Source of the DNA: Eledone cirrhosa
Taxonomy: Eukaryota
NCBI GenBank assembly: GCA_964016885.1
Contig: CAXHJY010000181.1
Span: 45,679 to 109,678 of the forward strand
Direction: 5' to 3'
Length of the DNA stretch: 64,000 nucleotides
The position numbers were made by a program, and so were the translations under genes. The notes beneath the pieces are model-generated. The model did not search any database. It was not told the DNA's origin and saw only the letters and a list, made by a program, of their open reading frames with translations. Positions 22,230 to 34,562 of the stretch are shown here, one piece after another (position 1 is the first letter of the stretch; every line of letters begins with the position of its first letter).

Positions 22230-22296
22230 TTTTATTATGCGCATTTCAAAAACAAACATCATCATGCAATAATATTTGTGTTTTCATCAGATAAAA
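22230..22296 (-). ncRNA. Hammerhead ribozyme (pLTR family)
   Basis: ttttat-CTGATGA-16-bp stem II-GAAA-tgcgca-TA-ataaaa. Confidence 0.8.
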
Positions 22297-23691: not shown

Positions 23692-24940
23692 ATCATCATC
23701 ATCATCATCGTTTAACGTCCATTTTCCACACTAGCATGGGTCTGGACGGGAATTGTCCATTTGAGGCAAGATTGGTTGTCTTGCTCAGGACTGTCTAGCG
23801 GGTTTTCTATGGCTGGATGCCCTTCCTAACACCAACCACGTTTACAGTGTGGACTTTGAGGTTTTTACCGTGTTACCTACACGGCCACATTACAGCGTGG
23901 ACTGTGTTTTTTTGTTGTGGTACCAACATAATTTCACATTTTAGGGGGTGGTGTGGATGGGGTGGGGGTAGTGGGACAGGGGTGTATTTTGTTAGAGGTG
24001 CCTACTGACTGTAGGTTTCGCTTTGTACTTAGGCAACGCGGGTCTTCTCTATTACTGTGTAGCGCCAAAGATCTCGGTCCAATGACATTGTCTTGGAGAG
24101 GTGTAAGTGTGTGAGGTCGGAATTTATCAAGTCGTCCCAGGTTTTTCTGGGTCTGCCTACTCCGTGGCTACCGTCTATTTTTATCGCCCTGCACTTTTTT
24201 AAACAGCTGTCGTCTTTCATGCGCATCACGTGACCATACCAATGTAGTCTTCTCTCGAGTAAACAACATCTGATCCCTCTTATTCCTAATTTTTCCCTTA
24301 GTTCGTTTATGCTTTGCCGTTCACGTATATTACTATTACACATCCAGCGGAGTATGCAAGCTCTGTTTCTCTCCAGTCTGCGTATATCCTCTGCACACAA
24401 TGCCCAGGTCTCACTGCCATGTAACATTGATGTTCGTATGCAGGCATCGTACAGCCTGCCTTTCATTTTTAGAGAGAACCCCTTAGCGGCCAATAGTGGT
24501 ATAAGCTCTCTGAACTTTTTCCATCCCGTTCTGACTCTAGCTACTGTACTTTCAGAGCACCCTCCCCCACTGCTTATTTTGTCCACTATTTCTATAGAAC
24601 CATCTGTGCAATGGAATGAGCTAGTATTCTGTGGGCACTTGCTGCTACTTATTGTACCAGAGCACCGGCCACATATAAAATCTATATTCTTAGTTAGCTT
24701 ACCTGTGATCCCACTACATCTTTTATGCACCCATACTTTGCATTTGGGACATAAAATGGAGTTTCTGCCTACTCCTTTCCTACACACTGAGCATGGCCAT
24801 TTCCCAGATGGGACCGGTGCCCTATTTTCCTTCCTACAAACTAGAACTTTAGTCTTAGACAAGTTAACTTTAAGGCCTTTTGATTCTAGGCCATGCTTCC
24901 ATGTTTGGAATTTCTTCTCTAGTTACGCCATTGATTCAGA
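23692..24940 (-). mobile_element. 5'-truncated RTE LINE
   Basis: ORF 24029-24862 covers the PHD finger and RT C-terminus, followed by the 3' UTR and (gat)n tail. Confidence 0.92.
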
Positions 24941-26880: not shown

Positions 26881-26946
26881 ATATATATATGTATATATAT
26901 ATATATGTAATATAAGATCAAAAGATGGTTAAAGGAGTTCCATATA

Positions 26947-27013
26947 TTTTATTATGCGCATTTCAAAAACAAACATCATCAAGCAATAATATTTGTGTTT
27001 TCATCAGATAAAA
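26947..27013 (-). ncRNA. Hammerhead ribozyme in the Penelope 3' terminus
   Basis: Same fold as 22358-22424 and sense to the GIY-YIG ORF. Confidence 0.8.
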
Positions 27014-28005
27014 CAGGAGAACATGATATGAAGGCTAAAAAAACACTTGTTGATAGTGCAGTTTTAAATCAACATATGAAAAGTGGTTTTAGATTGATGT
27101 GTGATATTGGGAAAAATATTTTATTTAGGGAGGGGGGGGGGAAAGGATGAAAAGGGAAGGAGATGAGAGGGAGAGATGGGTGATAGAGAGAAAGAGATAG
27201 TTTTTATAACTGAGAGGAGATATATTTTTTACATAGAGGGGTTGAAAACCGTTGGAAGATACTGTATAAATTAAAAATTTTGAAAATTAACGAAGGGAGG
27301 ATATGTGCGAGGAACAAATATTTTATTTAGGGAGGGTGGGGTGGAAAGGATGAAAAAAAGGGGGGAGGAGATGAGAGTGAAGGTGGAGAGGGAGAGATGG
27401 GTGATAGAGAGAAAGAGATAGTTTTTATAACTGAGAAAAAGATATATTGTTTTAATATAGAGAGGTTGGGAACCGTTGGAAGATAATGTATAAATTAAAG
27501 GAATTTGAAAATTAACGAAGGGAAATTATGTATGAAGATAGAGAGAAAAAAATAATAATTGTGGGTGAATATTCTAACGTCAAAAGAAGAAATGTATGTG
27601 TTGTGGCAATTTCAAAATTAGCGAAGAGAAAAATTGTTAAGGTAGAAGGATTTGAGAAGTGTAGAAGGATTTGAGAAAAATAATGTGAAGTTAAAGTTTG
27701 TATATTGAATTGATATGTATTGATAATGAGTTCGTTGATGGGGAGAAAAAAATAATAATAAATTAAGGATGAAATTGAGATTAAAAAGATTTATGATAGA
27801 GAGAAAAAATAATAATGATTGCGGATGAATATTCAAAATGTCAAAAACAAATATTATTTTACGAGATGATAGAATGAGGGTAATGAGTAAACAGGTATTA
27901 TAGAGTGTATAATGCCCTTTAAAGTAAGGTAGATGGGTATATTTTAAAGAGGTGTATGTATATGTGCCTTTGAGAAAAGATTCTAAATTGATAAAGAATT
28001 GAATA

Positions 28006-28883
28006 TTAACTGTATACTTTGTGAAAAGTTCTATGGAATTTATGCAGGCAGATAGAAAACAAATCTGAGCGTCTATTTATTATAGATTCTAGGTTAGAGA
28101 TAATGGTAAATTTTTCATTTAGGCAGAGATTACAGATTTTAGATAGAGAACTGTTCAAGTATGAGGATGCAGGAGAAATCTTTTTCCAAAAGATGTTATA
28201 TTTAATGTTTTTGTCTTTTAAGGACCATATGAGTTCTGAGAGAGCAGTGTTAGTTCTTTTAAGTTTGTATTTGAAAGATGAATGATGATTATAGAGACGA
28301 GCTTTAAAAGAGGTGGAAGTGGAGCCAAAATAGGTGAAGGAATTGGTGCTAGTTATAATTTTACATTCATAAATTAAGTTTTTATCGAGGCAATGGTTGT
28401 TGAGAGGACATTTATTTTTAATGCGGCAGTTGCAATTAGCGAGATTATTAATGAGTGATCTAGTGTTATCTATAGAAGGAATTGGATTGGAGAAGTTGTT
28501 TGCGATAGGAATAATAGGAATAATAGTTTCTTGATTTAGAGTTGGATTATGAACATTTAGCGAAGTTGTGTTTGACGTTGTATTTGGGTTTACAGAAGTT
28601 AGCCTAGGGTTTACAATGACGTCGGGAGTACTATTACTGTTATTATGAAATTCAATATTGGAAGGAAGAGATTTAGTATTTAATATTTTGTTGTTGTGTT
28701 TAGAGATGATGTTGGAAATATTGGAGGATGTAGAATACGAAAATTTGATGGTGTGTTTGTTAAATATTTTACTATAGATATGTGAGGGAGGGAAGCATTT
28801 ATTTAAGGCACTAAAAAATAATTTAGGAATATTGTTATTAATAGAGATGGAGAAAGGAGCATTATACCAGATTATGTTTTTGT
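28006..28883 (-). pseudogene. Penelope-like ORF C-terminal part: linker plus GIY-YIG endonuclease, no start codon
   Basis: Hand translation has no stops: KNIIWYNAPFS..KCFPPSHIYSKIFNKHTIKFSYST..CNCRIKNKCPLNNHCLDKNLIYEC..TYFGSTSTSFKARLYNHHSSF..TALSELIWSLK..CNLCLNEKFTII..INRRSDLFSICLHK..*. Confidence 0.88.
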
Positions 28884-29049
28884 AAATTGGAATAAATGCT
28901 CTGACACATATATATCGCTATTTCAGAGCATTTATTCCAATTTCTAATTTCTGCCGGACCGGCAACCGCTCTTTCAAACCAGTTCCTGTACACAGCTAAG
29001 TATTCTATAAGTCTCTAGCTGTGTCATTCTCGATAAAAGCACTGGATAT

Positions 29050-29092
29050 GTAGTCCTGAAGATTTCTAATAAGAATGAAACGCGTAGATTAC
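29050..29092 (+). ncRNA. Minimal type-I hammerhead ribozyme, unit 1
   Basis: gtagtc-CTGAAGA-t ttct aata agaa t-GAAA-cgcg-TA-gattac, enclosed by a 16-bp stem (29026-29041 with 29099-29114). Confidence 0.8.
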
Positions 29093-29359
29093 TTCCCTTG
29101 CTTTTATCGAGAATCTAATTGTAATACGTGACGTATTCTATTCTATAGCGATTAGGTCTTCAAAATGTTTATTATAAACATACAGAATATTTTCGAATAT
29201 TCTATGTCTATATTCACATATATATCGCTATTTCAGAGCATTTATTCCAATTTCTAATTTCTGCCGGACCGGCAACCGCTCTTTCAAACCAGTTCCTGTA
29301 CACAGCTAAGTATTCTATAAGTCTCTAGCTGTGTCATTCTCGATAAAAGCACTGGATAT

Positions 29360-29402
29360 GTAGTCCTGAAGATTTCTAATAAGAATGAAACGCGTAGATT
29401 AC
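29360..29402 (+). ncRNA. Hammerhead ribozyme, unit 2
   Basis: Same sequence as unit 1, offset +310. Confidence 0.8.
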
Positions 29403-29669
29403 TTCCCTTGCTTTTATCGAGAATCTAATTGTAATACGTGACGTATTCTATTCTATAGCGATTAGGTCTTCAAAATGTTTATTATAAACATACAGAATAT
29501 TTTCGAATATTCTATGTCTATATTCACATATATATCGCTATTTCAGAGCATTTATTCCAATTTCTAATTTCTGCCGGACCGGCAACCGCTCTTTCAAACC
29601 AGTTCCTGTACACAGCTAAGTATTCTATAAGTCTCTAGCTGTGTCATTCTCGATAAAAGCACTGGATAT

Positions 29670-29712
29670 GTAGTCCTGAAGATTTCTAATAAGAATGAAA
29701 CGCGTAGATTAC
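29670..29712 (+). ncRNA. Hammerhead ribozyme, unit 3
   Basis: Same sequence as unit 1, offset +620. Confidence 0.8.
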
Positions 29713-29834
29713 TTCCCTTGCTTTTATCGAGAATCTAATTGTAATACGTGACGTATTCTATTCTATAGCGATTAGGTCTTCAAAATGTTTATTATAAACA
29801 TACAGAATATTTTCGAATATTCTATGTCTATATT

Positions 29835-29876
<42 letters not shown>

Positions 29877-29878
<2 letters not shown>

Positions 29879-30302
29879 GTAGGAGGTGAGTTTTATTGTA
29901 GTACAATAAAGCAATGCAGATATCGGAAAAGAAGCACTCTACAGTTTGTAGGACTGGAGTATACATAATATATAAGATCAAAAGATGGTTAAAGGAGTTC
30001 CATGTATTTTATTATGCGCATTTCAAAAACAAACATCATCATGCAATAATATTTGTGTTTTCATCAGATAAAACAGGAGGACATGATATAAAGGCTAAAA
30101 AACACTTGTGGATAGTGCAGTTTTAAATCAACATATCAACATATGTTGATTTAAAACTGCACTATCCACAAGTGTTTTTTAGCCTTCATATCATGTCCTC
30201 CTGTTTTATCTGATGAAAACACAAATATTATTGCATGATGATGTTTGTTTTTGAAATGCGCATAATAAAATACATGGAACTCCTTTAACCATCTTTTGAT
30301 CT

Positions 30303-30310
<8 letters not shown>
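29877..30310. mobile_element. Penelope pLTR-like segment with inverted duplication; hammerheads at 30007-30073 (-) and 30204-30270 (+)
   Basis: Same family as 22101-22462, with arms ~29968-30135 and ~30141-30310. Confidence 0.8.
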
Positions 30311-30333
<23 letters not shown>

Positions 30334-30599: not shown

Positions 30600-33500
30600 T
30601 GTAATGTATAATAGAACATTTTCTTCTTGTCTCCTAAAACTTGGTTCATTCATCCATATATATCTACAATCGTTGCTATCCTATAATTCCGTCTCACTGT
30701 TCTAAATTAATCTTCTCCACGCTTCTTCTAAATAATCTTCTCTTTGCTAACTTGTTCTAAATAATCTCCACTTTGCTACCATTTTCGCCGAAAAAAAATT
30801 TTTCCAGGATTCATAAAAATAGATTCTCTTTGCTAACTACCCCATATCCCTCCCTCCAGCCCCCACTCTCCACCTTTACTATTTGGACCAATCACAAGTC
30901 AACGGCCTATGCTATCACTACTGGCTGCTTTTCGATATGATGGATGGACTAAGGAATTTCTGGAGAGTCTGAAGAATCTGGACACTCGATGACAATGCCA
31001 AAGATAACGACAAATTCACCTCATGCTGTCGGACGAAAGGGCAAGGCCTCCCCCTCTTTGTTTCGGCCGCGGATGGCCAACATAACCCCAAACTCATTCC
31101 CCTCACCCCTCCCTGCACCCCATCCTCCAAACACAATCCAAAACTTCAGAGTTGGTACCATGAACGTAGGCACCTTAAAAGGCCGCTCTAACGAGGTTGT
31201 AGAATTGCTTGAACGTAAGGAGGTTGATGTTCGCTGTATCCAAGAGACCAGGTGGAGGGGCGGGTCTGCTAGATTCATTGTGGGTAAAAAACGTTGCTAT
31301 AAGCTTTTCTGGGTGGGGAATGACAATGGGATAGGTGGGGTAGGAATCATGTTAGCAGAAAAATGGGTGGATAAGAAAATAGATGTAAATAGAGGGAATG
31401 ACAGAATAATTAAAATAAGACTTGTTCTAAACAGAACTACTGTGACAGTAATATCTGCATACGCGCCGCAATCCGGACTGCCTGGCGCTATAAAAGACAG
31501 ATTCTATGAGACACTGATGCTCGCTACCTCCCAAATAACTGACAGTGACTATATAATTATTGCTGGCGACCTAAATGGCCACGTTGGACAACATTGTGAC
31601 GGCTATGATGGAATCCACGGAGGCTATGGGTTTGGTACTAGAAACGAGGAAGGCTCCAGACTCCTGGAATTCTGTGATGCAAACAACCTAACTATCTGTA
31701 ACACTAACTTCAAAAAACGAGACAATCACTTGATCACATACAGATCAGGGGAACATACAAGCCAGGTAGATTATATCCTTACCAGAAGACGTGACAGAGT
31801 GTCTGTTGTAAACACTAAATCCCCCCCCCCCCCCCCCCCCCATGAAGAATGCACCTCCCAACATAGACTGATAATTAGCGACCTCATAATCAGGACGAGA
31901 GGTACTAGACAGCAGAAGAGGACTATCCTCAGGAGAAAAATATGGAAGCTAAAGGATCCTACAGCCGGAAATAAATTTCAAAGCATATTACTTGATGCTT
32001 TCGACAGTAAGGAAGAGCAATTAGAGTCGTACAAGGTAGAGGAACAGTGGGAATTCCTGAAAGCAAACCTGCTGATGGCGGCAGACGAAGTCTGTGGCTG
32101 GAGCAGGCCTGTAGGCAGGAGGAGAGTAACATGGTGGTGGAACAGTAAGGTGGAGGGGTCAATCAAGGCCAAAAAGCAGGCTTGGAAAGCATGGCGGGAT
32201 GGGGGAAGTAGAGAAGACTATCAAGTGGCCAGGAGGGAAGCTAGGAGACAAGTGTACTTCGCAAGAAGGGAAGCAGAGGAAAGAAAGTTCAAGCATGTTC
32301 TACAACGCCAGGACCAAAAACGTGATGTGTTCAGGATTGCTAGGCAATGTGTCAAGGAAAACCGTGATATTGTCGGGGAGAAGTGTGTACTTAACGATGA
32401 TGGTGTACTTGCCATCACTGACGCTGATAAGAAGGTTGCTTGGAAGTATCACTACGAAAGGGTACTAAATGAGGAAAATAAATGGGAGAAAGACAGTCTC
32501 CCCCACATCGACCCAATAGAGGGACCAGCAGTGTTAGTCGAAGGTAGTATAATAAGTAAGGCAAGCAAAGATATGAAGACAGGTAAGGCGGCTGGGCCTT
32601 CGGAAATAGTTGCTGAGATGCTGAAAGCCTCTGGAACGGTGGGTCACCCGGATAGTAAACCAAGTCATACCGAATGGGGTTGTTCCGAAGGACTGGCGTA
32701 GCAGCATCATCGTTAACTGTTACAAGGGTAAAGGAGACGCCCTAGATAGGAGTAACTATAGAGGCATTAAATTAATCGACCAGGTCATGAAGGTCACGGA
32801 AAAAGTAATAGCGCAACTAATCAGAGAGAGAATTGATCTAGATGAAATGCAGTTCGAGTTTGTGTCAGGCAAAAGTACCACAGACGCTCTTTTCATTGTA
32901 CGACAACTACAGGAGAAGTACCTAGCTAAAAGTAAACCCCTATACTTAGCTTTTGTCGACTTGAAGAAAGCCTTTGACAGAGTCCCCCCGTTCCATTATC
33001 TGGTGGGCTCTTAGAAAACTAGGTGTTGACGAATGGCTTGTGAGAGCTATACAAGCCATGTATAAAGAAACAGTCAGCAAGGTTAGAATTAACAACGAAT
33101 ATAGTGAAGAGTTTAGCGTAAAAGTTGGTGTCCATCAGGGCTCTGTTCTTAGCCCCCTACTATTTATTATTGCCCTTCAGGCTATAACAGAGGAGTTCAA
33201 GACCGGCTGCCCATGGGAACTCCTATACGCTGATGATCTAACGCTCATAGCTGAATCAATGGCCGAACTAGAGAAGAAATTCCAAACATGGAAGCACGGC
33301 CTAGAATCAAAAGGCCTTAAAATTAACCTGGCTAAGACTAAAGTTCTAGTTTGTAGGAAAGAAAATAAGGCGCCAGTCCCTTCCAGGAAATGGCCATGCT
33401 CAGTGTGTAGGAAAGGCGTATGTAGAAACTCCATTTTATGTCCCAAATGCAAAGTATGGGTGCATAAAAGATGTAGTGGGATCACAGGTAAGCTAACATA

Positions 33501-34562
33501 AGAACACAGATTTTAAATGTGGCCGGTGCTCTGGTGCAATAAGTAGCAGCAAGTGCCCACAAATACTAGCTCTTTCAATTGCGCAGAGGGTTCTATAGAA
33601 ATAGTGGACAGCTTCCGTTACCTGGGTGACAAAATCAGCAGTGGGGGGAGGGTGCTCTGAAAGTACAGTAGCTAGAGTCAGAACTGGATGGAAAAAGTTC
33701 AGAGAGCTTATACCACTATTAGCCACTAAAGGGTTCTCCCTAAAAATGAAAGGCAGGTTGTATGATGCCTGCATACGAACAGCAATGTTGCATGGCAGTG
33801 AGACCAGGGCATTGTGTGCAGAGGATATACGCAGACTAGAGAGGAACGAAGCTTGCATGCTCCGCTGGATGTGTAATAGAAATATACATGAATGGCAAAG
33901 CATAAACGAACTAAGGAAAAAATTAGAAATAAGAGGGATCAGATGTTTACTCGAGAGAAGGCTACGTTGGTATGGTCACGTGATACGCATGAAAGATGAC
34001 AGCTGTATAACAAAGTGCAGGGCAATAAAGATAGATGGTAGCCACGGAGTAGGCAGACCCAGAAAAACCTGGGACGAGCTGATAAATTCCGACCTCACAC
34101 ACTTACACCTCTCCAAGACAATGTCACTGGACCGAGACCTTTGGCGGTACTCAGTAACAGAGAAGACCCGCCTTACCTAAATACAAAGTAAAACCTACTA
34201 CAGTCAGTAGGCATCTCTAACAAAATACACCCCCGTCCCTCCACCCCCACCCCATCCACACCGCCCCTTTCAATGTAAAGTTATGTTGGTACCACAACAT
34301 CCAGGCCGAAACAAATGAGATCGTGTAGGTGTCGCGACAAAAAAAAACACAGTCCACGCTGTAATGTGGCCGTGTAGGCAACACGGTAAAAACTTCCCAG
34401 TCCCACACTGTAAATGTGGTTGGTGTTAGGAAGGGCATCCAGCTGTAGAAAACCCGCCAGACAGTCCTATGCGAGCAAGACAACCACTCTTGCCTCAAGT
34501 GGGAAAACTCCCGTCCAAACCCATGCAAGCGTGGAACATGGACGTTAAACGATGATGATGAT
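30600..34562 (+). mobile_element. Near-full-length RTE-clade LINE, frameshifted
   Basis: APE (GTMNVGTL, IQETR, SAYAPQ, GDLNGH, VDYIL), RT (AFVDLKKAFD, GVHQGSVLSP, YADD), a Cys/His finger, stop at 34180, 3' UTR and (gat)n tail. Frameshifts lie near 32641, 32988 and 33495. The 5' boundary is approximate. Confidence 0.95.

Follow-up and report, generated by a model that had tools for sequence, protein, structure and literature searches.

The stretch analysed here (the window: 64,000 nt of Eledone cirrhosa, assembly GCA_964016885.1, contig CAXHJY010000181.1, positions 45,679 to 109,678 of the forward strand) contains a tandem array of 310-bp units, each with a type-I hammerhead motif, lying between a truncated Penelope-like element (PLE) and a (TA)n microsatellite (Table 1). 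By its sequence features, the array is an animal retrozyme of the type without long terminal repeats (non-LTR), belonging to a previously undescribed family. The original prediction had proposed three identical units; sequence comparison confirmed them and extended the repeat by 11 nt. Beyond that prediction, the array proved to be one arm of a PLE-type two-arm insertion: the long arm ends on its outer side at a fixed site, site A, and an inverted second arm of only 21 nt ends at another fixed site, site B, where it joins the frame of the truncated PLE with one common base in place of (TA)n.

No stop-to-stop frame of at least 60 amino acids is present within the array. An LTR-type organisation was not seen, the arms ending at sites A and B (primer-binding site and polypurine tract were given no separate search), and target-site duplications of the insertions, which exceed 4 bp in animal non-LTR retrozymes that have them, are unreadable because both flanks consist of (TA)n. 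Matches to microRNAs near 30090–30190 were discarded as inverted PLE ends.

Table 1. Features at and beside the 310-bp-unit array (window coordinates).
Feature	Position	Strand	Remark
5'-truncated young Hydra-type PLE copy: 3' part of the frame (28006-28884), including the GIY-YIG region, followed by a 3' region with a (TA)n end	26905..28884	-	
Type-I hammerhead motif of the neighbouring PLE, distinct from that of the unit; core at 27007	26946..27015	-	
Short second arm, covering unit positions 19-39; outer end is fixed site B ('tail')	28884..28904	-	abuts PLE frame, 1 nt shared
Retrozyme unit 1, inner end of long arm	28905..29214	+	identical to units 2 and 3
Retrozyme unit 2	29215..29524	+	identical to units 1 and 3
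Retrozyme unit 3 plus 11 nt; outer end is fixed site A	29525..29845	+	end common to other insertions
16-bp helix around hammerhead (29026-29041 / 29099-29114)	29026..29114	+	fold; compensatory changes in relatives
Type-I hammerhead motif 1, core at 29056, predicted cut after 29086	29050..29092	+	descriptor match; weak Rfam Hammerhead_HH9 match
Type-I hammerhead motif 2, core at 29366, predicted cut after 29396	29360..29402	+	descriptor match
Type-I hammerhead motif 3, core at 29676, predicted cut after 29706	29670..29712	+	descriptor match
(TA)n target microsatellite, site-A end	29838..29876	.	sequence
Separate short two-arm insertion of the neighbouring PLE's terminal repeat, in the same (TA)n as the array	29877..30317	.	

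Hammerhead motif and predicted RNA fold

Each unit carries a stem I (GUAGUC/GAUUAC), the core CUGAAGA, a U·U pair, a 4-bp stem II, GAAA, the palindrome ACGCGU and the triplet GUA. A descriptor of the motif matches in every unit, at the hammerheads and cuts that the original prediction had named, and in none of 20,000 control sequences generated from the unit by a first-order Markov model. The Rfam comparison proposed with it gave weak support: a scan of 7 kb returned no hammerhead match at E ≤ 1, whereas a 161-nt stretch gave a weak Hammerhead_HH9 match (17 bits, with the gathering score at 52; E 0.071). Of the predicted secondary structure, the 16-bp helix around the hammerhead was located, and the tgccgg/ccggca hairpin is able to close no more than 5 bp over a 3-nt loop.

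The monomer is predicted to be highly self-paired (z -4.6), and folding alone cannot choose the strand because the reverse strand folds about as well (z -4.3). When folded from cut to cut, its two ends pair through stem I and the 16-bp helix, which would keep both ends of a cut monomer together. Stem III of a monomer is predicted to be unfavourable, consisting of one A-U pair over CGCG at a cost of about 5 kcal/mol; for the ACGCGU palindrome, a 6-bp intermolecular duplex is predicted. It had been suspected that the U·U mismatch at the base of stem II inactivates the ribozyme. This doubt appears weak, since U·U is the majority form, with 14,188 copies in the genome (one variant restores an A-U pair there), and is also found in the hammerhead of a second PLE described below; axolotl HHR_Amex2, a cleaving ribozyme, has it too (Cervera and de la Pena 2020, PMC7229834; here and below, citations refer to main texts).

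Insertion geometry

Insertions of the family sit in (TA)n as two divergent, back-to-back arms. Their outer ends fall at site A (unit position 310 plus a few bases) and at site B (unit position 37–40). Among 82 two-arm runs, 78 combine one A with one B end and none is AA or BB; the other four have one untyped end (two are cut by fetch limits, one is rearranged and one shortened), and the count is favoured by the preselection of 36 of the fetched stretches as A/B pairs. The same rule was found in all ten two-arm insertions selected by hammerhead pattern alone. Divergent pairs taken from independently made end lists were A+B in 46 of 47 cases, the exception (locus L205) having a masked B end and thus being A+B as well. 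A small number of insertions possess a single arm only. Copies of the neighbouring PLE display the same pattern of a short end and a tail end, and the two-arm layout of the retrozyme insertions is a PLE signature. We infer that one PLE dimer would prime once at each of the two sites.

The family across the genome

Pattern searches of the 3.0-Gb genome, for which reversed-pattern controls gave zero, returned about 15,600 hammerhead matches (1,369 to the exact 35-mer of the core and 14,243 to a CUGAUGA form). The outer ends, counted on the forward strand only since reverse counts are inflated by double matching, numbered 655 for site B and 903 for site A, and we estimate roughly 1,300–1,800 young insertions. 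A variant tail motif with more than 5,000 matches marks older relatives. In those inspected (L109–L138), the units measure about 317–326 bp and keep the same helices; in many of them the core is of the U3-A8 type (UUGAUAA) and the palindromic stem III is longer.

Five young and nine old units, 14 in all, were aligned. In this alignment, 95.8% of cells pair and both sides have changed in 17 of 51 pairs; the covariation score of 0.330 compares with 0.174 after shuffling and at most 0.098 after sliding, but the units are related and the structure derives partly from the same alignment, so that few independent events or lineages are involved. Core pair 3-8 is C-G in eight and U-A in six of the aligned relatives, and the ACACAGCUA helix is confined to the young group. 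The retrozyme interpretation of the original prediction is thus supported by a dispersed, non-coding, tandem family and by compensatory changes in its older relatives.

The assembly triplication that the original prediction had raised as a doubt is unlikely because the same unit forms arrays of up to about 48 units elsewhere in the genome. The wider proposal, in which the three units arose in assembly or form an ordinary satellite whose motif is due to chance, would suit the identity of the units and the small contig. It is at odds with dispersed arrays that have defined ends and private haplotypes, with the clean Markov controls and the covariation, and with the presence of the unit in public assemblies from four studies, and we regard it as highly improbable. 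Among the sequencing runs listed as containing the unit, there was no RNA run. Of four sequencing-run contig sets, three each contained one closed 340-nt contig; a tandem DNA repeat yields such a contig equally, so that it is no sign of circles or expression.

In several haplotypes (L169, L174, L194, L199, L203, L275), a fixed one-base insertion lies 2–3 nt past the predicted cut. It may have been left by ligation or by copying over the junction.

Template of the insertions

The inner ends of the arms do not cluster at the ribozyme cut: only 2 of 164 lie within unit positions 178–188, against about 6 expected if uniform (18 ends at positions 1–2 are partly a query-edge artefact). For this reason the template appears to have been continuous across the cut. 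The sequence composition of the arrays was evaluated in 81 insertions with at least three full units (755 units, locus L268 excluded). These insertions are clonal in unit sequence, with 34 insertion-wide haplotypes, 26 of which were seen once. Substitutions that break helices or the core account for 1 of 28 insertion-wide changes and for 29 of 75 single-unit changes, a class that contains assembly errors and was used as a neutral control (Fisher p 2e-4). Without A-to-G changes, the figures are 1 of 20 and 28 of 70 (p 0.0025).

In insertion L268 (G000:C1:380305186-380307570), all 14 differences from the parent haplotype are A-to-G on the ribozyme strand, and they are identical in seven full units across both arms. 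Twelve of the 14 sites are in or beside predicted helices and none follows a C; a diagnostic 28-mer has nine matches in the genome, all of them at this locus. Clustered A-to-G change is a mark of ADAR editing. L268 is best explained as one A-to-I-edited circle that would have been copied by rolling-circle reverse transcription. A single edited monomer copied repeatedly is the simplest reading because editing of a linear multimer should vary between units. The clonal arrays, the read-through at the cut site and the A-to-G-marked insertion thus support a circular monomer, indirectly.

On these grounds, we assign a probability of about 0.7 to the view that the array is a young non-coding hammerhead retrozyme insertion in (TA)n, written by a PLE enzyme copying a predicted 310-nt RNA circle. 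Several observations weigh against it, in addition to the preselected pairs and the relatedness of the aligned units noted above. In the predicted circle, formation of stem II reaches only about 16%. BLAST found no similarity of the 310-bp unit to the neighbouring PLE, and among the retrozyme loci screened there was no further direct junction between a PLE and a retrozyme. In Xenopus, eight of nine predicted retrozyme dimers failed to cleave in vitro (Li, Clavereau and Pollet 2026, bioRxiv 10.64898/2026.07.22.740005). Hyper-editing was seen in a single insertion, L268. Finally, some arrays are not uniform: L041 switches haplotype after two units in both arms, L184 switches in one arm, L189 has C76T in the outermost unit of both arms, and in L179 and L271 variants recur periodically (periods 7 and 8, respectively). 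Such insertions would call for templates in which unit types are mixed, or for duplication at a later stage. Together they show that one molecule can be read by both arms, and that there are also multimers or subsequent duplications.

The in-register patterns and periodic variants are what would be expected if the same two-arm PLE insertion used a linear uncut multimer transcribed from existing arrays, with gene conversion or unequal crossing-over homogenising the arrays later and the hammerhead being a passenger. In line with this scenario, PLE insertion in vitro did not require hammerhead cleavage (Frangieh et al. 2024, PMC11167929), and the Xenopus preprint favours local tandem amplification. 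It leaves unexplained, however, the 14 identical A-to-G marks in every unit and both arms of a single locus, the 26 haplotypes each fixed across one insertion, and the RNA-structure filtering of insertion-wide variants. We consider it unlikely, though it is the most probable competitor of the circular template.

Candidate helper elements

The PLE beside the array belongs to a young family (130 scored matches at 97–100% identity). An 821-codon open frame is present in 14 of 14 fetched loci, which were chosen for having it. It shows the motifs of the Hydra clade, namely a C-terminal GIY-YIG region without CCHH, a CxCX5C linker, DKT, CxxC and CxH, together with a (TA)n target and a hammerhead; its RWK-like motif reads RWT, not RWK. 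Pfam GIY-YIG matched the PLE fragment only at E 0.017 and was not listed for the full protein. Twenty homologues were found, all of them without a name. These motifs fit a Hydra-type PLE, for which an initial Neptune-like label was dropped. Hammerhead-like motifs at 22290(-), 22364(+), 27007(-), 30067(-) and 30210(+) belong to the end repeat of this PLE. The idea that the array is an inverted pseudo-LTR of the adjacent PLE was rejected, as the latter has its own, different hammerhead and end repeat. The junction in the window may record a single event in which the enzyme passed from PLE RNA to retrozyme RNA; alternatively, the retrozyme may have inserted later at the broken end of the PLE.

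A second Hydra-type PLE encodes 758 codons, is 35% identical to the first and accounts for 4,265 hammerhead matches. Its hammerhead is 89% alike to that of the unit over 28 nt and carries the U·U pair, and the sequence at its short end is similar; outside the hammerhead core, only weak matches to the unit were found. It would be an equally good helper candidate, and the likeliest helper is probably a Hydra-type PLE.

This likeness raises the question of whether an autonomous PLE not found so far has the 310-bp unit as its terminal repeat, the arrays being multiplied pseudo-LTRs and no separate parasite. Such an origin would agree with Xenopus, in which retrozymes match PLE termini (bioRxiv 10.64898/2026.07.22.740005). 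Yet outside the hammerhead core even the second PLE offers only those weak matches, the unit is missing from 19 other PLE loci, and neither 30 older-relative loci nor 30 site-B variants have a PLE frame after the tail motif. Searches with the tail motif found no autonomous element bearing the unit's tail, and in the loci examined no reverse transcriptase/GIY-YIG frame is continuous with the unit in the same orientation, the junction in the window falling in the middle of a truncated frame. A pseudo-LTR origin thus seems quite improbable.

The second Hydra-type PLE (L229–L267) also forms many short inverted pairs, in which the start of both arms lies upstream of the hammerhead core by a few bases. 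It is present, too, as a tandem of about 12 copies of a 1.08-kb repeat (approximate length) at G000:C1:83.68 Mb. Nested among the ends of the two Hydra-type families is a long open frame (L264:2223-5132, minus strand) with reverse transcriptase-like and GIY-YIG-like motifs unlike those of either.

Comparison with known systems

Animal non-LTR retrozymes consist of tandem units of about 150–450 bp, each with a type-I hammerhead, and occur as dispersed multicopy families beside PLEs; the 310-bp family has both properties. It further resembles those described by Cervera and de la Pena (PMC7229834) in being short, tandem and non-coding, with low GC content, a self-paired monomer and co-existing PLEs. 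Its stem III resembles that of axolotl HHR_Amex1, with one pair over a palindromic tetraloop. Cleavage and circles were demonstrated for those retrozymes; for the Eledone unit they are predicted. The same study proposes circle-templated reverse transcription, without genomic evidence, and its main text does not contain the words 'inverted', 'microsatellite' or 'rolling'.

Li and colleagues propose that retrozymes are non-autonomous PLE derivatives, on the evidence of co-occurrence and pseudo-LTR similarity. The array falls under their operational definition (two or more units in succession that have a complete hammerhead), but the PLE link of the 310-bp family is its insertion geometry rather than sequence similarity. 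The main text of the preprint has nothing on a tail, haplotypes or molluscs.

With PLEs, the family shares (TA)n targeting, tandem plus inverted copies, a 30–40-bp tail at one end, and two adjacent internal start sites with both strands extended and a predicted dimer (PMC8557442, PMC11167929). For published PLEs, inverted copies and a one-sided tail have been described (Craig et al. 2021, PMC8557442). In vitro, the Poseidon protein PAc cuts both strands and extends them from two neighbouring sites inside the RNA; its predicted form is a dimer (PMC11167929). Unlike PLEs, the 310-bp unit encodes no protein, and whereas PAc shows the same start-site use on both strands, retrozyme insertions use each site once.

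Dimer-type hammerheads of PLEs have a short palindromic helix III, for which a second copy is predicted to be necessary, and circles have been proposed as templates for their more-than-unit copies (Cervera and de la Pena 2014, PMC4209133). The motif of the unit likewise has a short palindromic helix III; it differs in its full 6-bp stem I and long enclosing helix and in lacking the G10.1-C11.1 pair. Literature searches, in which subscription journals are mostly outside the coverage, returned nothing relevant on edited retrozyme copies and only general PLE papers on two-arm retrozyme insertions. Relative to the main texts compared, the one-A-one-B rule, the clonal structure-filtered arrays and the edited insertion are new.

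Proposed mechanism

We propose the following hypothetical sequence of events for the circle-templated insertion, in which (i) tandem units are transcribed; (ii) the hammerheads would cut the transcript, probably as dimers through the ACGCGU palindrome; (iii) the monomer, its ends kept together by stem I and the 16-bp helix, would be ligated; (iv) a PLE protein dimer would cut both strands of (TA)n and prime once at site A and once at site B, which would lie about 37 nt apart on one RNA; (v) both reverse transcriptases would run round the circle, and the two cDNAs would join by short homology. Uncut multimers are likely to serve as templates at times. A fuller scenario, which we advance tentatively and would rate slightly below an even chance, regards the family as a twin rolling-circle fossil record: a Hydra-type PLE dimer, priming from both ends of a (TA)n break, copies one circle repeatedly from two structure-defined sites, ADAR edits of that molecule become fixed in DNA, and the junction in the window marks the enzyme's hand-over from its own RNA to site B of the retrozyme.

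Circles as retrotransposition templates, and the enzyme that would copy them, have been proposed since 2014–2020 and are not demonstrated in the literature compared. The family supplies about 1,300–1,800 young insertions, each readable as the outcome of a single event, together with two priming sites of mapped position, a substrate of 310 nt and candidate helpers whose frames are intact. The circle-template model, as well as the origin of PLE 'tails' and inverted copies, is thereby open to direct tests, both in vitro and through a census. A further suggestion is that a parasite's RNA, once A-to-I edited, can hand the edits on to heritable DNA sequence.

Other features of the window

Broken copies with endonuclease and reverse transcriptase frames, which we take to be LINE-like from their motifs, lie at 24029-24922(-) and 30953-34180(+). 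Further type-I hammerhead-like motifs were noted at 293(+), 1575(-) and 25319(+). A degenerate (AT)n tract of about 10 kb, with an extreme GC skew near -0.96, occupies 53056-63316.
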